A DNA stretch of 64,000 nt. Source: a phage. A program made the translations under genes and the position numbers. The stretch is from the sequence record PQ724393.1. One strand, written 5' to 3'. Under the pieces are notes generated by a model, which was not told where the DNA came from, made no database searches, and saw only the letters and a list, made by a program, of their open reading frames with translations. This document shows positions 2,100 to 51,864 of the stretch, piece after piece (position 1 is the first letter of the stretch; the number at the start of each line of letters is the position of its first letter).

Positions 2100-3118
2100 C
2101 GTGTAACCTCATTATAAAGTTGTGCAGCCATAGTCTTAAGGGCTTTAACATCGTCTTCAGTGTGGCCATCAGGAAGGGCATCGATATAGTCATACATCAT
2201 ATCCAAGAGGGACTTGACTTCATCCTCCTCTTCAGAATCATCGATATCAACACTATTATCTACCTTAGACACAATACGTAAAGAATGGACGACCTTTTCA
2301 AGCTCTGATTCGAACTTAGTAAGGCCGTCATCAATTTTATCGACTATAACACGAACTGCGATATTTGTAAAATCTTTGTAATCGATAGTCGCGTTAGGAT
2401 AATGAATCTTACGATGCCAACAGGTTTCATTAATGATGAAATCCATTTTATGAGTTTCGGTATCGAAAATCCAGAAACCACGAGGGTCGTTCTCATCACC
2501 TGCAGTCAGGGTCCATGGAGTACCAATGTACTTAACGTTTGCTGCATCAGAAATAGTGTGGAAGTGGCCTGACCAAACTTGCTTATACTTTTTAAGGAAA
2601 TCAGGTTCTAAACCATGGGATTTCATTCCTTTATAGAAATAGAAACCATTTAATTCCCAATGCCCAATACAGAAATCTGCTGTGGTATTTTTGATATGGT
2701 CCATGATATCGGTCGTGTTTTCTTCACACATCCATGGAATCAAATCAATTTCGGTGCCATCAAAGTTAACCGTAGTAGGTTTTTCAATAACCTTGATATG
2801 GTCATATTTACCCAGAACTTCAGAAGCAGCATTAGGAGTCAAGGTATTTTTGTAGTGCATATCATGATTACCAACAACGGTATACATGGTAATGCCATTA
2901 GCTTTAAGCAAATCAGAGATTTCGCGAGCGAATTCCATGCACTTGTGAGTAATTGCTTTACGAACATCAAAGATATCACCGTATTGAATCCATACAGTAA
3001 TGCCATTTGCTTTAGAATAATCAATAGCGTCTTGGATACCTTGACGTTGGATATTTTGTACCCACACATCATCAGCCTTAACTCCAAGGTGCCAGTCACC
3101 TGTGTTTAATATTTTCAT
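2096..3118 (-). CDS. 47: Recombination endonuclease subunit gp47 (Mre11-like phosphoesterase)
   Basis: MKILNTGDWHLGVK..., motifs GDWH, GDIFD, GNHD, GHFH typical of Mre11/SbcD; start set to ATG at 3116-3118 (the ORF-track start at 3145 is TTG). Confidence 0.9.
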   Translation of the reverse strand: MKILNTGDWHLGVKADDVWVQNIQRQGIQDAIDYSKANGITVWIQYGDIFDVRKAITHKCMEFAREISDLLKANGITMYTVVGNHDMHYKNTLTPNAASEVLGKYDHIKVIEKPTTVNFDGTEIDLIPWMCEENTTDIMDHIKNTTADFCIGHWELNGFYFYKGMKSHGLEPDFLKKYKQVWSGHFHTISDAANVKYIGTPWTLTAGDENDPRGFWIFDTETHKMDFIINETCWHRKIHYPNATIDYKDFTNIAVRVIVDKIDDGLTKFESELEKVVHSLRIVSKVDNSVDIDDSEEEDEVKSLLDMMYDYIDALPDGHTEDDVKALKTMAAQLYNEVTR

Positions 3119-3301
3119 AAGCCAAGCACCGTTATCGAAATACAAAATAAAATTATTGAAATGAACCCGTCAGAAGTGGAAAAGAATCCTATCCAACAAG
3201 CTCTTGTGAATGTGTAGAATGCCATGAATAACACGACATATCCTAAAAATAATTCCATATGTTCTCCTCAGTTGGTTCATTTTATCATCCCGAATATAAA
3301 G

Positions 3302-3326
3302 CAAAAAAGGAAGCCCTAGGCTTCCT
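3302..3326 (-). terminator. Rho-independent terminator (minus strand)
   Basis: Perfect inverted repeat GGAAGCC-CTA-GGCTTCC at 3309-3325 followed on the minus strand by a U6 run (plus-strand aaaaaa at 3303-3308). Confidence 0.6.
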
Positions 3327-3489
3327 TTCCAATTAATACGCCATACAGAGGTTCGTGATTAGACCTGAACTTGATAGGCTTATAGGTAATAGTACCTTCA
3401 TTTTCTGCTTTAATACGAGCGGCTTCAAATTGAAGTATCATCTCATTTTTGTCAGATTTAATCTTATCAAAATCCATCGAATTCGTCAT
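3316..3489 (-). CDS. Hypothetical small protein (57 aa)
   Basis: ATG at 3487-3489 preceded by AAGAGG 9 nt upstream; MTNSMDFDKIKSDKNEM...; stop lies inside the terminator stem; below the ORF-track length cutoff. Confidence 0.35.
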   Translation of the reverse strand: MTNSMDFDKIKSDKNEMILQFEAARIKAENEGTITYKPIKFRSNHEPLYGVLIGKEA

Positions 3490-3547
3490 TCATATAACCT
3501 CTTAAACTTTTTCGTATTCGTCATTCATTAGCCTGCAGTCCATGTTA

Positions 3548-3748
3548 TCATCTCTGCCACCACTTCTTAAGTTGATGAGAATCTACCCAAACCTTGGCTA
3601 CGGGCTCAATCTGAAAAATACCATCAGAATATCGGCCCATCATTTTGTATTCGGTTTCGGACTGCTTAATACAGATATTACCGTATGAGCGAAGTCTAAA
3701 GGCGGCTCCAATAAGAAGCCGTTTAAAGGGTTTATTTACCAGAGCCAT
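3548..3748 (-). CDS. Hypothetical protein (66 aa)
   Basis: ORF only; weak. Confidence 0.3.
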   Translation of the reverse strand: MALVNKPFKRLLIGAAFRLRSYGNICIKQSETEYKMMGRYSDGIFQIEPVAKVWVDSHQLKKWWQR

Positions 3749-4043
3749 TGACGATTTCCCAAATTTGTTTGCGGGTGGATTCCCACATCAATTGAACAAG
3801 TTCATCAGTAACAGGTTGACGGTAAATACCACGTAATTTAATTAAAGCGTACTTATATGCTTCAAAGTTGTTTTCAAGTACAGCGCCTTGGGCGTGGAGA
3901 TTTAAACGACGGATTTCACGAGCATTCTTCTTAAGAATCTTAGCCGCTTGAGAATTAGCTTCTTTAATATTGTGCTCTTCTAAACGTTGCTGGGCTTCTT
4001 CAATTTGCTCGTCAGTCAATTGAGAAATGTCATGGCTTTGCAT
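3732..4043 (-). CDS. Hypothetical protein (103 aa)
   Basis: ORF with ATG start; sits where T4 has 47.1/alpha-gt. Confidence 0.45.
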   Translation of the reverse strand: MQSHDISQLTDEQIEEAQQRLEEHNIKEANSQAAKILKKNAREIRRLNLHAQGAVLENNFEAYKYALIKLRGIYRQPVTDELVQLMWESTRKQIWEIVNGSGK

Positions 4044-4044
4044 A

Positions 4045-4311
4045 TTAATCCTTTGGAGTCAATTCGATAGTGAAGTAGAAATTAGCGTTCTCAACATGAT
4101 AACGATAATCTACGTTATTATCAGGAGAAGTGAATTCAATATTCCTGACGTTAAGTGGGTCAATATCAATAGGAAGGCCTTTAACATCCCGTAATATCAA
4201 TTTAATAAAATAAGGGAGTGCTTCGAAGTCTTCCATTCCATCTAAAAGTGGAGTGATATTAATCTGATGTTCCATATAAAAAATCCAGTTCGCCAACTTT
4301 AGGTTCGGCAC
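4045..4311 (-). CDS. Hypothetical protein (88 aa)
   Basis: ORF just downstream of gene 55; N-terminus overlaps the gene 55 3' end, so the true start may be internal. Confidence 0.4.
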
Positions 4312-4816
4312 TCTTATCAGACCCTGGTGCTTTAGTTAAAGAGGTTTCATACTGTGTCATTTTATCGTAGATATCTTGGATAAAGGTTTCATCTGCAATA
4401 CCTACCATATCGTCATCATTACTGTCATAGACATTATGGACGAAGTAGCTATATTTCTTTGCCATTTCTTTACGTTCTTTTTTGATACGCTGAACGAAGG
4501 CATTAAAACAAGCCATAGTGATATATGCATGTGGGTTGTCGTATTTTGTTTCGTCGAAGTTGTGAAGACCTTTAATCGAAGCTTCGATTCCATCAGCAAT
4601 CATTTCTTGCTTCCAGGATTGGGTATATCCGGAGAAGTTGAAACGCTTACTTAGTCCTTCAGCAATGAGCATAATAGCCAACCCTATAGTATCATTTTGT
4701 CTAATGATTTTATTAGGGTCGGTATTTTCTCTAAGCTCTGTTTTCCATTGGGTAATAGCTTTCAGAAGCTCCTTATTATTTACATAGTTATTTTTAGTCA
4801 GTTTAATTTCGGTCAT
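4259..4816 (-). CDS. 55: Late-transcription sigma factor gp55
   Basis: 185 aa, ...[11 protein letters not shown]...[49 protein letters not shown]... matches T4 gp55 closely; SD GAGGT upstream of ATG 4816. Confidence 0.9.
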
Positions 4817-5409: not shown

Positions 5410-5650
5410 TTAAATAATCCTCAAATTCATTTAATGTCATGCCTTCGTCCCAAGCTATTTTAGGATCGGGCATTTTCATATAAGTGGTCTTAGAGCTTAT
5501 AGGAAATATCCTGAAATCGCGATGACTTCCACTTAACATATTAGCCGCTTTTATAATAGTTTCACTATTATTCATCATAGGGGTACGTTGGAAACCGGCT
5601 AAAGCTTTAAGGACTATTATAACCGATACATCTTCAGGCAAATTACTCAT
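5402..5650 (-). CDS. Hypothetical protein (82 aa)
   Basis: ORF; overlapping start/stop with neighbours. Confidence 0.45.
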   Translation of the reverse strand: MSNLPEDVSVIIVLKALAGFQRTPMMNNSETIIKAANMLSGSHRDFRIFPISSKTTYMKMPDPKIAWDEGMTLNEFEDYLND

Positions 5651-5976
5651 TTCGCAGCCTTAACAATTTTCAGGTCAACGAATTTTTTCTTACGTTGATT
5701 CTTCATACGACGGATGGTTTTGTCTGTGATTTCACCTGGCTGCCAAGCTTTAGATTCAACACCAAAGGCGGCCACATCAAACTCGTCGAGAATATATTGA
5801 ACCAGGATTTCACGAATACCGTTCTTACCAATTTTTTGGTCTTTAGAGTGCATGATTGGTAACAGTTCAGCAACCCATCGGTCAAGAACCTGAGGAGTTA
5901 CAAAGCCGGTTTTCATCAGTTCGTTAACTTTATCGAAAGCGAAAGAGTTCAGTACGTTTTTAATAGCTTGTGACAT
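5647..5976 (-). CDS. Hypothetical protein (109 aa), N-terminus MSQAI
   Basis: ATG preceded by GAGGAAATTATT; the 23-nt initiation region is identical to that of the gene at 13078. Confidence 0.5.
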   Translation of the reverse strand: MSQAIKNVLNSFAFDKVNELMKTGFVTPQVLDRWVAELLPIMHSKDQKIGKNGIREILVQYILDEFDVAAFGVESKAWQPGEITDKTIRRMKNQRKKKFVDLKIVKAAK

Positions 5977-6046
5977 AATAATTTCCTCAGTTTAAAATTT
6001 ATAATCCATGGGACCATTATACTCTGGTCCCAAGAGTTTGTAAACT
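5977..6046 (-). promoter_or_regulatory. Early-type promoter with hairpin around the -10
   Basis: Coding strand GTTTACA-N17-TATAAT; -10 sits in the loop of GGGACCA/TGGTCCC inverted repeat. Confidence 0.5.
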
Positions 6047-6245
6047 ATTTTTGTGCTAATGCACCTTTCCAACCTTCGTACATCGCCGCAGCCGATATTA
6101 ATATTGCTCCTGCGCATTTTGAATATTTGTTATTCCAAAACCAGTTTAGAAAAACTTCGTCATCAATACCTTGGGCTATCATATTTTCAAAGAATTGACG
6201 ACGAGCTTCAGCAACACGTTGTGATAATTTAGATTCAGGATTCAT
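6045..6245 (-). CDS. Hypothetical protein (66 aa)
   Basis: ORF 6045-6293 trimmed to ATG at 6243-6245 directly after the upstream stop. Confidence 0.4.
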   Translation of the reverse strand: MNPESKLSQRVAEARRQFFENMIAQGIDDEVFLNWFWNNKYSKCAGAILISAAAMYEGWKGALAQK

Positions 6246-6246
6246 T

Positions 6247-6378
6247 TTAAATTTTCCAGTTACCGTTTTCATCAATAAATTTAATCCAGTCATTTACTGA
6301 CCACGTGGTTGTATCGCCCTTTGGACTGACATTTAAAGTATACAACCCTTGCTTAAAAAGCATTCGTTTGATATTCAT
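6247..6378 (-). CDS. Hypothetical small protein (43 aa)
   Basis: ATG at 6376-6378 preceded by strong SD GAGGAAAAT; longer ORF-track version overlaps neighbour. Confidence 0.35.
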   Translation of the reverse strand: MNIKRMLFKQGLYTLNVSPKGDTTTWSVNDWIKFIDENGNWKI

Positions 6379-6385
6379 ATTTTCC

Positions 6386-6679
6386 TCAGCTGTAACGATA
6401 ACATTCGTTTGATTTACGTTTTGCAACTTGATGAGAAGTATTGTAATCAGGTTCATCGTCGTTGTAAACATCTTTTTTCAGCTTTCTCACTTCTTTACGA
6501 AGTTGGCGATTCATTTCATTCTTAACTTCAGAATCAACACCACGCATACGTTTCCACTTGTCAGAACGGAAGATATTTTCCTCAACCAGTTCCTGACTTA
6601 CACCGTCGGGCGCTTTACGGCGTCCGGAATAATAAAAATCTTTTACAGACAATTCTTTACGGCGAATAGTTTTACCCAT
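6386..6679 (-). CDS. Hypothetical basic protein (97 aa)
   Basis: ORF; Lys/Arg-rich. Confidence 0.45.
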   Translation of the reverse strand: MGKTIRRKELSVKDFYYSGRRKAPDGVSQELVEENIFRSDKWKRMRGVDSEVKNEMNRQLRKEVRKLKKDVYNDDEPDYNTSHQVAKRKSNECYRYS

Positions 6680-6681
6680 AG

Positions 6682-6936
6682 TTACCTCAGCAGTTTGTAT
6701 CCAATAAGATGTTTAATGTATTGGACATCTTTGACATCCAAATCTAACTTAATATCTTTCAGGCGTTCGGCCAGAGTAAGAAATGTTACGCGTTTCCAAT
6801 TCTTAACAGGGCAACAATAAGTTTTCGGCCCGTTAGCGATTTCAATATTTTTATCTGTGACGGTGATAAAAATCAAACGTTCATCATCGAGATTAAGGGT
6901 GACGACACTTTTGGTTGAATGTAGTTTCAGGCTCAT
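6682..6936 (-). CDS. Hypothetical protein (84 aa)
   Basis: ORF. Confidence 0.45.
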   Translation of the reverse strand: MSLKLHSTKSVVTLNLDDERLIFITVTDKNIEIANGPKTYCCPVKNWKRVTFLTLAERLKDIKLDLDVKDVQYIKHLIGYKLLR

Positions 6937-7115
6937 AATTTAATTTCCTTAGCTATCGAACAAAACAAACTACGGTCACATACCATCAATGGAATATTTC
7001 TATGGTCTAGTACACGATACCATACGTCTGAATCGCTAGCAGCAATTACACGAACCGCACGCCCATTTACCAAATAATACTGGTCGGCTTTAATTTCTTT
7101 ATCTTGGATAGTCAT
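6933..7115 (-). CDS. Hypothetical protein (60 aa)
   Basis: ORF immediately downstream of promoter cassette 7116-7174. Confidence 0.45.
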   Translation of the reverse strand: MTIQDKEIKADQYYLVNGRAVRVIAASDSDVWYRVLDHRNIPLMVCDRSLFCSIAKEIKL

Positions 7116-41262: not shown

Positions 41263-41270
41263 TATAAATA
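41263..41270 (+). promoter_or_regulatory. Late promoter (TATAAATA) for gene 53
   Basis: Exact T4 late promoter motif 28 nt upstream of gene 53 ATG. Confidence 0.65.
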
Positions 41271-41277
41271 TTAATAT

Positions 41278-41285
41278 TATTTATA
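41278..41285 (-). promoter_or_regulatory. Late promoter (TATAAATA) for gene 4
   Basis: Minus-strand TATAAATA ~27 nt upstream of gene 4 ATG. Confidence 0.55.
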
Positions 41286-41297
41286 CTCGGAGGCCCT

Positions 41298-41900
41298 ATG
41301 CTCTTCTCATTTTTCGATCCTATCGATTACGAATCAAAAACAGTCAAGCCGGATTCAGGCTCATTAACAAATGCCGATGTACTGAGCGTGCCGATGACTG
41401 ATATATTTAGAAATTATAAAGAATATTTTGATAAAGTGGCTAAAAACTATACACTAAAGACTTATTATATCAACGGGGCCCCTCGTCCAGAAGAATTGGC
41501 TAATCAACTTTATGGTAATGTCCAATTATATTGGGTTTTATTGATGTGTAATAATATATACGACCCTTATTACGGCTGGATTACAGGCCAAGAAGTTGCA
41601 TATCAAGCGGCAATCCAAAGATATTCTACTGCAGGTGGCAATCAAGTTCTTTATCATGTTAATGAAAAGGGTGAGAAATTCTGGAATCTTGTTAATACTC
41701 CAGAAAACCCATATACTTGGTATGATAAAGGTGATACAGAAAAACGTTATCCTCAATATGAGGGCCCTTTGGCTGCAGTAGATATTTACGAGGATGCTAT
41801 TCGTAAAAATGAATATAAGCGCGAAATAAAGATTGTGGACCCTAATGATATTGAGTCCTTTATTTCTGCCCTTATTCGCGAAATGGAGAAAGCCCTCTAA
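41298..41900 (+). CDS. 53: Baseplate wedge protein gp53
   Basis: 200 aa; first late gene after divergent promoters; synteny with T4 53-5-6. Confidence 0.8.
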   Translation: MLFSFFDPIDYESKTVKPDSGSLTNADVLSVPMTDIFRNYKEYFDKVAKNYTLKTYYINGAPRPEELANQLYGNVQLYWVLLMCNNIYDPYYGWITGQEVAYQAAIQRYSTAGGNQVLYHVNEKGEKFWNLVNTPENPYTWYDKGDTEKRYPQYEGPLAAVDIYEDAIRKNEYKREIKIVDPNDIESFISALIREMEKAL

Positions 41901-43687
41901 TGATTAACATGTCTGATAATGTAAGTTGGTTCGTCGGTGTAGTTGAAGACCGAATGGACCCGCTCAAACAAGGCCGAGTACGTGTACGCGTATGGGGTAT
42001 GCATCCCTATGAAAAGGTACAAGGCCCTGTAAAAGGTCTTCGTACAGAAGATTTACCATGGATGTCGGTATTAATGCCTACATCTTCGGCCTCTGTTTCA
42101 GGTATACAAACCGCTATGACCGGTATGGTCCCAGGTACACAAGTTTATGGCCACTTTCTTGATAAGTGGAAATTAAACGGACTTGTCCTCGGTACATACG
42201 GTTCTGCATCAAAACAAAAAGCAAACCCTAATGAAGGTTTTAGCGACCCAACAGGCCAATATCCACTTTATTTAGGTAACGATGCCGCTGCACTAAACCG
42301 AGGTGGTGAAGTTGGATATGATGCCACTTCTAACGTAATCCAGGATTCTAACCTAGATTTAGGTATTAATCCTGACGGTTTAGATTTAAGTCAAGTCAAG
42401 CCTGACGATAATCCTAATTTCACAATAGAAAACATGCTTCACCGTGATGAAGGGCTTCGACTGAAGGTATATTGGGACACCGAAGGTTATCCTACTATCG
42501 GTATAGGTCACCTTATTACGCCACAACCTATTAGAGATATGAACCAAATAAACAAAATATTGTCTAAACAAATAGGTCGAGAAGTTAAAGGTAACCCTGG
42601 CGCAATATCAATGGATGAGGCTTCTAAATTATTCCAAGAAGACCTTAAAAAAGTCCAAAGCGATATAGGTCGACATAGTGTTGTGGGTCCGGTTTACAAT
42701 AAAGAAAACCGTTCAAGACAAATGGCTCTTGAAAACATGGCTTTCCAAATGGGTTTAGGTGGGCTTGCTAAATTCCGTGGTATGCTCAGTGCTATGCTAA
42801 TAGGCGATTATAAAAAGGCATTTGAGGAAGCTCGTAATTCAGTGTGGTTCAACCAAACTAAGGGCCGTGCATCAAGGGTATCAATGATTATCCTTACAGG
42901 TAACATGGAATCATACGGTATTATGGCCCCTAAAGAAAGGTCATTTAAAGGGCGTTCGTATAGAATGATTCAAACTTTTGCCGCACCTGCAAATTCAGAC
43001 CCAGCCGACCCATGGACCCCAGAAGATACAAGGATTCTGTTTAAAGAGCCAGAATCAAGTTACAAGGGCGAATATCCTTACGTGCAGACAATGCAAACTG
43101 AAGGTGGGCATATCCAAGAATTCGATAACACCCCAGGGCAAGAACGTTATCGTTTAATCCATCCTACAGGTAGTTATGAAGAAGTTGCTCCTGATGGCCG
43201 CAAAACTTCTAAGACGGTAGCCGATGGTTATTATATGACCCAAGGCGATTCTAATACTTATGTCGGCGGTAATAATAAAGTCAACATAGGCGGTGATGAA
43301 ACATATTATAATATGGCTAACGTTCGCCGTCAGACCGACGGAAACGAAAGCATTCATATTCGAGGGAATGAAACCAAAACTGTAGAAGGTAATGGAACTC
43401 TGCTTGTTAAAGGAAATGTTAAAATAGTTATTATGGGTACTGCTGATATAACTGTTGAACAAGAAGCATATATTACGGTTGAAAAAGATACAACAGTTAA
43501 TGTCAACCAGAATGCAGATATAAGCGTTAAACAAAAGGCCACAATAAATGCTCAAAATATGGATGTAAATGTCGAACAAGATTTAAATTTTGCAGCGACG
43601 AACATTAATTTAAACGCATCAAATACTGTGCATATGGATGGCGGTTCATTAGCTAAAGTATCTGGTGGCAACGTACAGGTCGGTTAA
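41900..43687 (+). CDS. 5: Baseplate hub / tail lysozyme gp5
   Basis: 595 aa; N-terminal ...WFVGVVEDRMDPLKQGRVRVRV...; central lysozyme domain ENMLHRDEGLRLKVYWDTEGYPTIGIGH; C-terminal beta-helix repeats. Confidence 0.9.
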   Translation: MINMSDNVSWFVGVVEDRMDPLKQGRVRVRVWGMHPYEKVQGPVKGLRTEDLPWMSVLMPTSSASVSGIQTAMTGMVPGTQVYGHFLDKWKLNGLVLGTYGSASKQKANPNEGFSDPTGQYPLYLGNDAAALNRGGEVGYDATSNVIQDSNLDLGINPDGLDLSQVKPDDNPNFTIENMLHRDEGLRLKVYWDTEGYPTIGIGHLITPQPIRDMNQINKILSKQIGREVKGNPGAISMDEASKLFQEDLKKVQSDIGRHSVVGPVYNKENRSRQMALENMAFQMGLGGLAKFRGMLSAMLIGDYKKAFEEARNSVWFNQTKGRASRVSMIILTGNMESYGIMAPKERSFKGRSYRMIQTFAAPANSDPADPWTPEDTRILFKEPESSYKGEYPYVQTMQTEGGHIQEFDNTPGQERYRLIHPTGSYEEVAPDGRKTSKTVADGYYMTQGDSNTYVGGNNKVNIGGDETYYNMANVRRQTDGNESIHIRGNETKTVEGNGTLLVKGNVKIVIMGTADITVEQEAYITVEKDTTVNVNQNADISVKQKATINAQNMDVNVEQDLNFAATNINLNASNTVHMDGGSLAKVSGGNVQVG

Positions 43688-43688
43688 T

Positions 43689-45752
43689 ATGAATTACTAC
43701 GATAAAGTTGATGAAGTGGTAGGGACTGTAACAAGTCCCTGTGATGACGCAGTAGGACCTGGTGAATATCGCCGGGTTAAATGGGAATTATATAACCCAA
43801 CAGGTGCTTTTATTCAACCCGGGAATGGCGTTGAATGGGATACCGAGATTATTCCACTAGCTACACATTTATACACACAAAATCCATTTGGTAATAAGTC
43901 CGAAACTTTTCCTGCACCTCCCCCGCCGGAAGATGGAACAAGTCAAGGTATCTGGTGTGCTAAACTCGGAATATTCTTTATTACGCAATTGGATTTAGAA
44001 AATTATGTAGAATCGATTGGTGCAACTCTTTTGCCCGGTAATGATTGGTACGGCGCTGATTTATCAAAATCTGTATTGTATAAAACATCTATTGAATATG
44101 ATATGTATCGCATCGAAAACTGTGGCGGTGTATGGACGTCACAAGGCCCCAGAATGGACCCCAGGACGATGATTGCAGTTACGGCTGATTATCATATGTA
44201 TGTCAACTTTAACGGCCTTGGTGACTCCCGCAGGGCTTATTTGAAGTACTATGAGACAAAACCTTGTACTTATGTTGGACTGGTATTAAATCTAGATGTT
44301 GATATGAGTATCCCAGGAACTCCGATTCCAGGACCAGTATCCATCGGGTCTTTACCACCAGAAATAACCGGGCGAGCCAGGGCAATAAGCTGTGTTCCTT
44401 TTACAGCGGAATTCCCTTACAACGGATTGACCAATGCGATTATGGCTTCATGGAATACATCTAGGAATTCATTCAAATTATATTGGGATATGCTCCCTGG
44501 ATGGCCATCATCTGGTGGAACCGATTGGGAAAAATTCTTCGATTCCGGTTATAGTAAGCTATCGGTCGCAATGGAAGAGCTAGGCAACTCAGCTGTTGCT
44601 ATGTGTCAATATGTTCAGCAAATGGCTTTTCTTGCATTTAAAGATGCCATATCACAGGTCTTGGATATTGTTGGTGGTGGGTGGGACTTACTTAAAAGCT
44701 TTTTACCCTCGATTACTATTATGGGCATGACTATTGACCTGGAAGACCTCTGCACTTCAGGTGATGGTGTACAGAAATTAAAAGAAGCATGGAAAAACTT
44801 TAATTTAGAAGAAACCATCCAATCGATTTATTCTGCCATTGGGTCGGCATACGATTATTCGGTTGAACGCGTCAAGATGTATTCGCGTGACCTTATTGAT
44901 GCAATTACAGACTTGTATGACTGGGCCTGGTCTCAATTGCTTATGGCTGGTGTTGCATTATCAAAACTGTGTGTAGACCTCGCTCAAATATGGAGTATGC
45001 CTCCTATAGTTCCGAACCCAGTTTGGAGCGTTATTACTGCGGTCAAGGAAATGATGAAGCAAGTTAAACCACTGGACATGATAATGAGCGGTAACTTTCC
45101 AGGATTCACGGCATCAGATGTTTATCAAATGGTTATGGAAAAGGTAGACCAGAAAATAGACGAAGCTTATGCAATGATTGAGGCTCTTAAAACCCAGGCA
45201 CTCAATCTGTGGAATGAGATTAAGCTCAAAAAGCAAGAAGTACAAAAACAAGCTATTGAATTTAAACAATATCTTTCAGGAATGTACGAAAAAGTTACAG
45301 ACGAGCTAACTGCTCAGAAGGAAGCCGCATTAGCACAAGCTGAAGCTGCACTTGAACTTTTAAAGAATAAATATAAACAGATTAAGAACTCTATTACCGA
45401 AAGTCAAACCTCCGTTTCTGATGTATTAGATATGGCTTTAGAAGAATTCAAAAAACTTCCTATTGTGGCTCAAATGGAAGAACTTCTCGGTATGCTCGGA
45501 GCTACTGTAGATGATATCATGGTTATATACGAGAACTCAGTAACTAAAGCAAAATCTTTATATCACGAATTTACTGATGGTTCCAGGTCAATGAAAGACT
45601 TGTGCAAATCAATGTATAACCAAATATCAACATTATCCTTAAGTAAGGTGGTACAATGGATTAATAAGATGCTGGGAATATTCGGTTTAACGATTGCATT
45701 TCCATCCCTTTCCATTTGCATACCTTGTTTAGAATCTCCTACTAGGAATTAA
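43689..45752 (+). CDS. Large uncharacterised protein (687 aa) between genes 5 and 6
   Basis: ATG 43689 one nt after gp5 stop, ends 2 nt before gene 6; N-terminal Pro/Gly-rich half and C-terminal coiled-coil half; no product recognised. Confidence 0.7.
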   Translation: MNYYDKVDEVVGTVTSPCDDAVGPGEYRRVKWELYNPTGAFIQPGNGVEWDTEIIPLATHLYTQNPFGNKSETFPAPPPPEDGTSQGIWCAKLGIFFITQLDLENYVESIGATLLPGNDWYGADLSKSVLYKTSIEYDMYRIENCGGVWTSQGPRMDPRTMIAVTADYHMYVNFNGLGDSRRAYLKYYETKPCTYVGLVLNLDVDMSIPGTPIPGPVSIGSLPPEITGRARAISCVPFTAEFPYNGLTNAIMASWNTSRNSFKLYWDMLPGWPSSGGTDWEKFFDSGYSKLSVAMEELGNSAVAMCQYVQQMAFLAFKDAISQVLDIVGGGWDLLKSFLPSITIMGMTIDLEDLCTSGDGVQKLKEAWKNFNLEETIQSIYSAIGSAYDYSVERVKMYSRDLIDAITDLYDWAWSQLLMAGVALSKLCVDLAQIWSMPPIVPNPVWSVITAVKEMMKQVKPLDMIMSGNFPGFTASDVYQMVMEKVDQKIDEAYAMIEALKTQALNLWNEIKLKKQEVQKQAIEFKQYLSGMYEKVTDELTAQKEAALAQAEAALELLKNKYKQIKNSITESQTSVSDVLDMALEEFKKLPIVAQMEELLGMLGATVDDIMVIYENSVTKAKSLYHEFTDGSRSMKDLCKSMYNQISTLSLSKVVQWINKMLGIFGLTIAFPSLSICIPCLESPTRN

Positions 45753-45753
45753 A

Positions 45754-47712
45754 ATGGCTACTCCTACGAATTACCAATTAACAAGAACCGTTAACGCTAT
45801 CCCAAAAGTATTTGTGGGAGCTACGTTTGAAGAAATTAAAAAGAATATTATAGACTGGCTTTCTAGCCAGGACGAATTTAAGGATTATGATTTCGTTGGT
45901 TCTCGAATGAATATCCTTATTGATATGCTTGCTTATAATACCCTTTATATGCAGCAATTTGCTAACACCGCTTTATACGAATCTTTTATAGGAACTGCAA
46001 ACCTTCGTTCTTCGGTTGTCCAGGCTGCACAAGATAATGGATATCTTCCTAGTTCTAAATCCGCGGCAAAAACTTCCGTAATGCTTACGTGTACTCAGGC
46101 TCTTAATGAAAAGAATATTCGTATTCCACGTGGTACTAAATTCTTGGCTTATGCTCGTGATACTTCAGCCGATCCATATGCCTTTGTGACCACTGATAAC
46201 GTTATTGCAGTGCGTGACGTTAATAACCAGTACTGGCCCATTGTTTCTCTGGCTCAAGGACGTATTATTCGTACCGAACTTAAATACGACCCTAAAACTC
46301 CTATTCTTATTCGTGACCCGGATATTGATAGACAAGAAGTTAAACTTTATGTTGATGGGGCAGAATGGATTAACTGGACCGATAAATCAATGGTTCACGC
46401 TGGTAGCACCTCGACAATTTACTATATGCGCGAAACCGTAGATGGTAATACCGAATTCTTCTTTGGTGAAGGTGAAGCCGAGAAATCTGTTGCAGGCGGA
46501 GTATTAGAAGCTAATTATATCGGCGGTCTAAAACCTGTTAAAGATTCTACCATTGTTATAGAATACCTTCGTACAGACGGTGAAGTTGCAAACGGTGCAG
46601 TTGACTTCAGTTATGCTGACTCCTTGGCTTATATTACTGTAGAAAAAATTACTGAAAACTATAACGACGACCCTGATTATGTCGGTGCTGATGGTGGTGG
46701 TGACCCTGAAGATATCGAACGTATTCGTGAATTGGCCGTAGTTAAGCGTGAAGCGCAGATGCGTGCTGTAACAGGAACCGACTATGATACATTCGTATCT
46801 GAACGTTTTGGCTCTATTGTACAAGCAGTACAAACCTTTACAGACCCAAATAAACCAGGTTATGCTTTTGTCACCATTAAACCTAAATCAGGGCTATATT
46901 TGACAGCCGTCCAACGTGAAGACATCCAAGACTACCTAAAAGAATTTAACTTAGCCCCTATTACCGCTTCTGTTATTTCTCCTGATTATTTGTTCTTAAA
47001 GCATAAAATTAAGGTATCGTATGCCTTGAATAAATTACAGGAATCTGAACAGTGGCTGTCGGCTCAAATTCTTTCTCAGATAGACCGTTATTATATTAAC
47101 GAAGTAGAAATTTTTAACCATGGATTCGCTAAGTCAAAAATGCTGACTTATATTGATAATGCTGACCATAGTATTTTAGGCTCCTCTGCTACCGTAACAA
47201 TGGTTCGTGAGGTATTGAACTTTTTCAAAACCCCTGAATCAGGTATTAAATACTATAATCAATACACTAACCGTTCTGTGGTTTCTAGTGAATTTGAGTT
47301 TGTCCCTACTATCGTTTCTGAAGACAGTCCTGCGTATAATGTCAGAATTGCCGCTACAGATAAAGACGAACGTGGTGATGGTAAAATGGTTATTGGTCCT
47401 TTCCGTCCAGGAGATGTAATTGAAAACCAATATATTAAACCATATACAGGAAATGACTTTGATAAAATGCCTGCTCCTGCAGACCAATCCGTTTATTACG
47501 TTATAGGTGAAATTGATTATTATTCAGATTTCATTTTCTGGGACATTGCGGCTATCGGTTTAACGTCCGATCGTTTTGAAGTTCAATCTATAGAACTTTA
47601 TGCGGGACCTGACCAAGACAACATCTTTACAAAAGACGGTTCGTTAATCGTATTTGAAGATGACCTCCGCCCTCAATACACGACCATTGAATTAGAACCT
47701 ATTACAATATAA
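45754..47712 (+). CDS. 6: Baseplate wedge protein gp6
   Basis: 652 aa MATPTNYQLTRTVNAIPKVFVGATFEEIK...; T4 gp6-like. Confidence 0.85.
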   Translation: MATPTNYQLTRTVNAIPKVFVGATFEEIKKNIIDWLSSQDEFKDYDFVGSRMNILIDMLAYNTLYMQQFANTALYESFIGTANLRSSVVQAAQDNGYLPSSKSAAKTSVMLTCTQALNEKNIRIPRGTKFLAYARDTSADPYAFVTTDNVIAVRDVNNQYWPIVSLAQGRIIRTELKYDPKTPILIRDPDIDRQEVKLYVDGAEWINWTDKSMVHAGSTSTIYYMRETVDGNTEFFFGEGEAEKSVAGGVLEANYIGGLKPVKDSTIVIEYLRTDGEVANGAVDFSYADSLAYITVEKITENYNDDPDYVGADGGGDPEDIERIRELAVVKREAQMRAVTGTDYDTFVSERFGSIVQAVQTFTDPNKPGYAFVTIKPKSGLYLTAVQREDIQDYLKEFNLAPITASVISPDYLFLKHKIKVSYALNKLQESEQWLSAQILSQIDRYYINEVEIFNHGFAKSKMLTYIDNADHSILGSSATVTMVREVLNFFKTPESGIKYYNQYTNRSVVSSEFEFVPTIVSEDSPAYNVRIAATDKDERGDGKMVIGPFRPGDVIENQYIKPYTGNDFDKMPAPADQSVYYVIGEIDYYSDFIFWDIAAIGLTSDRFEVQSIELYAGPDQDNIFTKDGSLIVFEDDLRPQYTTIELEPITI

Positions 47713-51856: not shown

Positions 51857-51864
51857 TATAAATA
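51857..51864 (+). promoter_or_regulatory. Late promoter (TATAAATA) for gene 9
   Basis: Exact motif 27 nt upstream of gene 9 ATG. Confidence 0.65.

Follow-up and report, generated by a model that had tools for sequence, protein, structure and literature searches.

The window analysed here is the whole of a 64,000-nt stretch of phage DNA (sequence record PQ724393.1). It is of the JS98/Bp7/WG01/SP18 type of T4-like coliphage, and all the features described below are on its + strand. Between the baseplate genes 5 and 6 lies a single ORF (43689..45752), a putative spike-tip gene coding for a protein of 687 aa and 76.7 kDa. On its 5′ side is gene 5 (41900..43687; 595 aa), encoding the baseplate hub, tail lysozyme and spike, and on its 3′ side is gene 6 (45754..47712), encoding a baseplate wedge protein. 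Both were delimited from their ORFs and the WG01 annotation, according to which the neighbours are gp53, gp5, gp6 and gp7. Nucleotide identity with phages of this type is 99.1–99.9% across the ORF; in WG01, whose copy has a DNA identity of 99.2%, the gene carries the label ORF156, 'hypothetical protein'. The GC content of the ORF (0.35–0.43) is the same as that of its flanks.

The reading frame is open from a GTG at 43665 to 45752, and the ORF listing gives 687 aa from the ATG at 43689. The GTG, eight codons upstream, was ruled out as the start by the homologs, which all begin at the ATG: the motif M(N/D)Y at this position is the N-terminus in 54 of 54 aligned sequences. Gene 5 ends with GTC GGT TAA, its stop at 43687, leaving 1 nt before the ORF, as the first-pass annotation had noted. 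That annotation placed the end of the ORF 2 nt before gene 6, whereas the gap between the ORF stop, which ends at 45752, and the gene 6 ATG at 45754 is 1 nt.

A T4-type late promoter box, TATAAATA (41263..41270), precedes gene 53, and the next one on the + strand is found at 51857, 5′ of gene 9. Since these are the only + strand boxes nearby, genes 53-5-ORF-6-7-8 are read as a probable single late transcription unit; what supports this is the placement of the boxes between genes, the count of the motif in the window being not above chance. Co-transcription of the ORF with the baseplate genes, suggested from the outset, would agree with this promoter layout and with the 1-nt junctions.

In T4, the interval between genes 5 and 6 contains 5.1, segC, 5.3 and 5.4, and repEA, repEB and oriE lie inside gene 5, so that the small ORFs and the mobile and origin genes named in the first-pass annotation are indeed those of T4. 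Here the 687-aa ORF fills the interval, as was also stated there. A search with T4 gp5.4, a query that picks up homologs in 1,422 phage records, some with an identity as low as about 26%, gave no gp5.4-like ORF in the window (best E 0.06, inside another gene) and no gp5.4 homolog at E ≤ 1 in the complete WG01 genome. The lack of a 5.4-like PAAR ORF, first remarked for the interval, thus extends to the window and to the rest of the genome as represented by WG01. For 5.1 and 5.3 the outcome was equally negative, both in the window and in WG01 as a whole.

The ORF itself was searched for PAAR repeats (PF05488; a pseudo-threefold cone of about 95 residues) at the level of profile, sequence and fold, and none was found. 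Remote homology to PAAR proteins or to gp5.1 was rejected, hhalign of the ORF against T4 gp5.4 and gp5.1 giving no homology; with gp29 it gave none either, and the protein remains, as first described, one that cannot be assigned to a T4 structural protein. Lying directly 3′ of gene 5 in a genome without gene 5.4 (as searched in WG01), the ORF occupies the same genomic slot as T4 gp5.4 and related PAAR tip proteins (PF05488; PDB 4KU0, 4JIV). Its product would presumably sit at the same site of the virion, where the gp5 beta-helix ends, and like them be the first to touch the host envelope.

Homologs of the ORF were detected by tblastn in 216 phage records and are full-length in 214. Carriers include Dhakavirus, Moonvirus, one Tequatrovirus, Bragavirus, Slopekvirus, Pseudotevenvirus and unclassified Cronobacter phages, and identities across these several genera range from 42 to 100%. 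Residues 1–682 match the 685-position profile phrog_5296 ('unknown function') with E = 0. Members of this RB43 orf205w/PHROG 5296 family are about 670–760 aa long and contain both of the domains described below; the window ORF is homologous to them over its full length. The alignment of 55 sequences has 47 invariant columns, spread over the whole length of the protein. Such full-length conservation rules out both an ORF open by chance and a fusion through a frameshift. A profile search of 1.84 billion representative proteins returned only 13 clusters at E ≤ 1e-10, and the family therefore appears to be narrow. Both of the distant cluster members with genomic context examined are in T4-like gene neighbourhoods. 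Searches of Pfam and NCBIfam with the ORF gave nothing beyond sub-threshold coiled-coil noise.

Comparison of the gene 5–6 interval in related phages, proposed in the first-pass annotation, covered about 16 distinct phages and placed the ORF directly 3′ of gene 5 at each locus. Adjacency was seen in the window, RB43, Pm5461, S13, KP27, SG1, KM16, 12 IMG/VR loci and two distant metagenomic relatives. In the IMG/VR loci, 12/12, the distance between the gp5 stop and the start of the ORF is −1 to +10 nt. The gp5–ORF pair is kept in Cronobacter S13 even though gene 6 is not downstream, in a metagenomic relative where gp25 is inserted before gp6, and in another metagenomic relative whose gp5-like protein has no lysozyme domain. 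The adjacency holds in distant relatives with as little as 31% identity.

The gp5 of the window is a composite of two regions with different affinities. Its body is 65% identical to T4 gp5 and 47% identical to RB43 gp5, and in the comparison with T4 an identity of 63–70% drops to 17–22% past approximately residue 525. The last 60 residues are 36–45% identical to those of other ORF carriers and 14–25% identical to those of gp5.4 carriers. In all carriers examined, including 12/12 IMG/VR loci, the C-terminus of gp5 is (V/I/F)(S/T)G(G/A)(N/T)V(Q/S/V)VG; this motif is present in none of the four gp5.4 carriers examined, three of which end in GSRI(D/N)(I/L)G. The window gp5 has the family-specific end ...GG(N/T)VQVG: its tip-specific C-terminal segment, delimited by gp5 comparison (43427..43687; approximately residues 510–595), ends in ...KVSGGNVQVG. 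The last 60–90 residues or so of gp5 thus co-vary with the type of tip and are inherited together with the ORF, and the ...KVSGGNVQVG segment is presumed to be the docking platform for the ORF protein.

A natural exchange of the two tips is found in Salmonella phage SG1, a Tequatrovirus and hence of the same genus as T4. The two phages are 100% identical in gp53, 97–100% in gp5 residues 1 to about 480 and 98% in gp6. The T4-like DNA match ends at codon 502 of gene 5, which marks the cassette boundary. From there, 2,295 bp of SG1 (locus L015, 2234–4528), consisting of the last 88 codons of gene 5 and a 678-aa homolog of the window ORF (73% identity), stand in place of 1,605 bp of T4 (gp5 tail, 5.1, segC, 5.3 and 5.4). 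The flanks of the cassette are 97.4% and 95.3% identical to T4. This replacement between T4-like flanks indicates that the unit of exchange is exactly the spike end plus the ORF, and that the tip works in an otherwise T4 baseplate. Such a swap is what would be predicted of a protein that binds only the tip of gp5.

The ORF is 42.9% identical to RB43 orf205w over 99% of its length, and the gene order gp53-gp5-X-gp6-gp7 is the same in both phages; as judged by this comparison, it is the ortholog of orf205w. The term 'unrecognised', used in the first-pass annotation, has therefore to be given up, since the protein is known both as PHROG 5296 and, through RB43, in the literature. In a preprint from the laboratories of Leiman and Belin (Mattenberger et al., bioRxiv 2025.08.28.672839 / PMC12407873; last updated in March 2026), RB43, RB16 and Lw1 are reported to lack gene 5.4 and to have orf205w at the 5.1–5.4 locus. 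The protein has about 690 residues, of which 1–220 are mixed alpha/beta and the remainder helical. In a cryo-EM map of the RB43 baseplate at 17.7 Å, the sole difference from T4 is a larger spike tip, which accommodates an AlphaFold model of orf205w, and orf205w was proposed as a 'unique' spike tip replacing the PAAR protein gp5.4; the complex could not be reconstituted. The same study showed that the P2 spike enters the periplasm (PMC12407873).

The window ORF resembles orf205w in having an alpha/beta N-terminus and a helical remainder, and in its occurrence in a genome without gene 5.4. It differs in belonging to a Tevenvirinae (Dhakavirus-type) genome, in which the gp5 body is T4-like rather than RB43-like. 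Our AlphaFold2 model is confident (pLDDT 87), whereas that of RB43 orf205w was called low-confidence (PMC12407873). This kind of tip is thus already described, if barely characterised. What goes beyond the searchable literature is the co-variation of the gp5 tail with the tip, the exchange of the cassette in SG1 and an N-terminal fold that is apparently new.

No virion proteomics of any carrier phage was found in the searchable literature, which leaves aside the JS98 genome and proteome paper (PMC2168658). The KP15/KP27 paper and a slopekvirus preprint are without mass spectrometry, and EcRAM-01 was analysed by SDS-PAGE only. In the proteomics of Morganella phage MP1 even gp5 went undetected. 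The ValerieMcCarty phages are Jiaodavirus of the gp5.4 type.

The AlphaFold2 single-chain model, computed from the 55-sequence alignment, has a pLDDT of 86.7 and a pTM of 0.77. The protein can be divided into three parts. The N-terminal alpha/beta domain (residues 1–290; 43689..44558) is rich in Pro (8.6%) and Gly (9.7%), has a core with pLDDT >90 and contains invariant residues that include C18, Y27-R28, W50, W120-G122-A123-D124, E143-N144 and C193. No known fold was detectable for it, and its fold is apparently novel. The helical domain (residues 291–661; 44559..45671), delimited by predicted secondary structure and block conservation, is predicted to be almost entirely helical from residue 294 to 665, with very long helices at 294–328, 398–435, 475–529 and 538–575. 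Conserved cores are found in this domain at NIVGGGWD..KSFLP (326–340) and IWSMPP.VPNPVW...SGNFPGFT (433–474), and the amphipathic stretch 476–600 is the least conserved part of the protein. Structural matches to the helical domain were to generic helical hairpins only. Of the architecture proposed in the first-pass annotation, the Pro/Gly-rich N-terminal half and the helical C-terminal half hold, the latter being more aptly termed a long amphipathic helical bundle and not a classical coiled coil.

The third part is a conserved hydrophobic C-terminal segment, LGIFGLTIAFPSLSICIPC (residues 662–680; 45672..45728), recognised by its hydropathy and block conservation (0.76); its 19-residue Kyte–Doolittle mean of 1.87 is the maximum for the protein. 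In the monomer model, residues 673–682 at the C-terminus form a strand. Another strand, 235–241, is present in the full-length model only, and the two may therefore pair. Internal threefold repeats, which could have matched the gp5 trimer, were sought in the protein and none was found.

On the basis of these data, we consider that the ORF encodes the spike-tip protein of the phage, docked on gp5 in place of gp5.4, with a probability of roughly 0.7. The first-pass annotation had suggested a new protein associated with baseplate or spike, or else an injected effector, and this proposal gains support from the orthology with orf205w, the co-inheritance with the gp5 tail and the absence of a PAAR gene. 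The probable location of the protein at the virion spike tip is the well-supported part of the explanation, the support coming indirectly through the 17.7 Å map of RB43. The protein, of about 77 kDa, would cap the gp5 trimer at the blunt C-terminal end of its beta-helix and thus fill the place of gp5.4, a PAAR protein of 97 residues in T4. Probably a single copy would dock on the ...GGNVQVG end platform of gp5. On contraction of the sheath, it would be driven into the outer membrane ahead of the rest of the virion, and would then pass with the spike into the periplasm, as does the P2 spike (PMC12407873).

The gene could instead encode a non-virion assembly factor or chaperone for the variant gp5 tail, which would cap or fold the VQVG-type end and then leave, the density at the RB43 tip being due to another source. 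Co-inheritance with the gp5 tail fits a dedicated chaperone equally well as a bound subunit, and the failure to reconstitute the complex (PMC12407873) also speaks for this reading, as does the fact that mass-spectrometry detection of the ORF protein is not known in the literature. Against it stands the extra mass at the RB43 tip, for which there is no other candidate gene at the locus (PMC12407873). Furthermore, 687 residues with strongly conserved surface motifs are large for a chaperone, and phages without the ORF have at the same locus gp5.4, which is a structural tip. We therefore consider a chaperone unlikely.

About as little weight is given to a role chiefly as cargo. The protein would then be an effector carried on the spike, such as an alpha-helical pore-former of the ClyA/Hbl/XaxA type, and would target the host envelope or competitors, with tip-capping serving only as the loading device. 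Fusions of PAAR proteins with toxins in T6SS are a precedent for an effector-bearing tip. Like the ClyA-family toxins (Hbl-B, MakA, XaxA/YaxB), the protein is predicted to combine an elongated bundle of amphipathic helices with a hydrophobic element, here the C-terminal segment. The best PDB sequence match is Hbl-B, at a marginal E of 0.0056, and MakA, YaxB, XaxA and IpaB are among the structural matches; the scores are not significant, however, the matches being no better than those with generic helical hairpins (prefoldin, HlyD), no counterpart of the toxins' head or beta-tongue emerged, and no Pfam toxin family was matched. In addition, the ORF is syntenic and kept in all members of several genera, whereas effector cargo is otherwise variable. 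A ClyA-like pore-former is thus a weak lead.

Still less probable is a tape-measure-like or ejection protein, residing in the lumen of the hub or tube and expelled to form or extend a channel across the envelope. Three records are annotated 'tail length tape measure protein', there are weak matches with PHROG tape-measure families (E 0.001–0.03), and genuine PF10145 tape-measure proteins match residues 470–660 with E 1e-6 to 4e-4. The ORF protein shares long amphipathic helices and hydrophobic segments with tape-measure proteins (T4 gp29; PF10145), and the tape measure of T4 forms a channel (bioRxiv 10.64898/2026.03.06.709160), which can be counted in favour of this reading. However, the phage type has a gp29 of its own, located as usual in the hub cluster (WG01 ORF195, 578 aa), hhalign of the ORF with this gp29 gives a probability of 0.14%, and the ORF has no PF10145 match. 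The matches that were obtained are confined to the poorly conserved, apolipoprotein-like amphipathic stretch. The gene also differs from tape-measure genes in its place and partner, and the SG1 swap pairs it with the gp5 tip and not with tube or hub genes. Identity with a tape measure is accordingly rejected; the label is spurious, a recurring annotation error in this family that is corrected here.

Finally, the idea that small genes of the interval were joined by a frameshift or fusion, as an artefact of annotation or sequencing, has nothing in its favour but the unusual size of the ORF for this position, and can be regarded as refuted by the full-length conservation and by the invariant columns along the whole protein, the confident single-chain model and the lack of similarity to T4 5.1, 5.3 and 5.4 pointing the same way. 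Such an artefact, or clear homology to a known T4-family protein, would have overturned the first-pass annotation; both were looked for and neither was found.

Returning to the spike-tip reading, the protein may do more than sharpen the needle: the amphipathic bundle and the hydrophobic C-terminus would contact membrane lipid and so promote penetration of the envelope. A membrane-active mechanism of this kind, aiding penetration or the formation of a channel, is offered tentatively, as one possibility that we hold to be rather doubtful. A more elaborate version, to which we give slightly less credence again, would make the protein a new class of membrane-active tip, attached to gp5 and having an N-terminal fold not seen before. 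Its apolipoprotein-like bundle would open on lipid, and would either breach the outer membrane or prime an inner-membrane channel together with the tape measure. The protein and the last 90 or so residues of gp5 would make up a 'penetration cassette' that T4-like phages swap, SG1 being an example, in adapting to different cell envelopes.

Spike tips extended beyond a simple cone are known elsewhere. T6SS PAAR proteins with C-terminal toxin domains are tips that travel with the spike into the target periplasm, and the apex of P2 gpV or phi92 gp138 is likewise carried there (PMC12407873). Their apex is beta-helical or of the PAAR type and often binds a metal ion; no such apex is detectable in the ORF protein, which in addition is a separate gene product.

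How contractile tails cross the outer membrane is still debated, and the PAAR cone has been regarded as the tip common to phage tails, tailocins and T6SS. If the reading proposed here is correct, the tip is seven times larger in several genera of T4-like phages of enterobacteria, which would mean that it is replaceable by a very different device. The carriers include many candidates for phage therapy against Klebsiella, Enterobacter, Cronobacter, Proteus and E. coli. As T4 and SG1 differ at this locus in the cassette only, the pair would constitute a ready system for studying the role of the tip in penetration and host range.

The 687-aa ORF (window 43689-45752, plus strand), a putative spike tip encoded between genes 5 and 6, has relatives in divergent metagenomic sequences. 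A contig from JGI 3300076144 (locus L018, 219-3624; coordinates of comparison loci are those within the locus) pairs a 743-aa homologue with a 389-aa gp5-like protein, which has an OB domain and a beta-helix, lacks a lysozyme domain and ends in ...FTGGTVVVG. On ENA ERZ23488527 scaffold_330 (locus L017, 3-8531), a divergent T4-like contig, the gp5 ends in ...FTGGTVSVG and the gene order is gp5, a 764-aa homologue, gp25, gp6, gp7, gp8; gene 25 therefore separates the tip gene from gene 6.

The baseplate cluster of Cronobacter phage S13 (KC954775; locus L010, 708-7067) is rearranged: the homologue adjoins gp5, but where gene 6 would usually follow there is a group of small hypothetical genes on the minus strand. 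In the Slopekvirus phT4A (NC_055712; locus L008, 3347-4973), the homologue is shortened to 485 aa: about 190 residues are missing from its N-terminus, and 170 nt separate it from gene 5. The full-length gene is present in other slopekviruses. The record is labelled 'partial genome', so the short copy may represent a deletion or an assembly artefact.

Three records (PQ187642, PQ657830 and PQ657829; hits H32, H65 and H66 among 216 phage records with a homologue) name the family 'tail length tape measure protein', a label that most likely spread from an error of annotation pipelines misled by amphipathic-helix similarity.

In the window, two late-promoter boxes TATAAATA lie back to back in the 46 nt that separate genes 4 and 53 (41263-41285; plus strand at 41263, minus strand at 41278). 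Judged by this intergenic position, since such boxes are no more frequent over the whole window than by chance, they would fit T4-type divergent late transcription units, as expected. Two antisense ORFs on the minus strand, of 141 aa (43154-43579) and 62 aa (43354-43542), lie where gene 5 encodes its beta-helix repeats and are probably by-products of its repetitive codon pattern; in T4, the repEA and repEB genes and oriE occupy antisense positions inside gene 5.

A large-tip cassette also occurs in Salmonella phage SG1 (NC_054936), which is assigned to the same genus as T4. Locus comparison shows that SG1 (L015) 2234-4528, comprising the gp5 tail and a 678-aa ORF, replaces T4 (L002) 5467-7071, which holds the gp5 tail, 5.1, segC, 5.3 and 5.4. 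The flanks of the SG1 cassette are 95-97% identical to T4. On this sequence comparison, SG1 is a clean natural recombinant at the tip locus.
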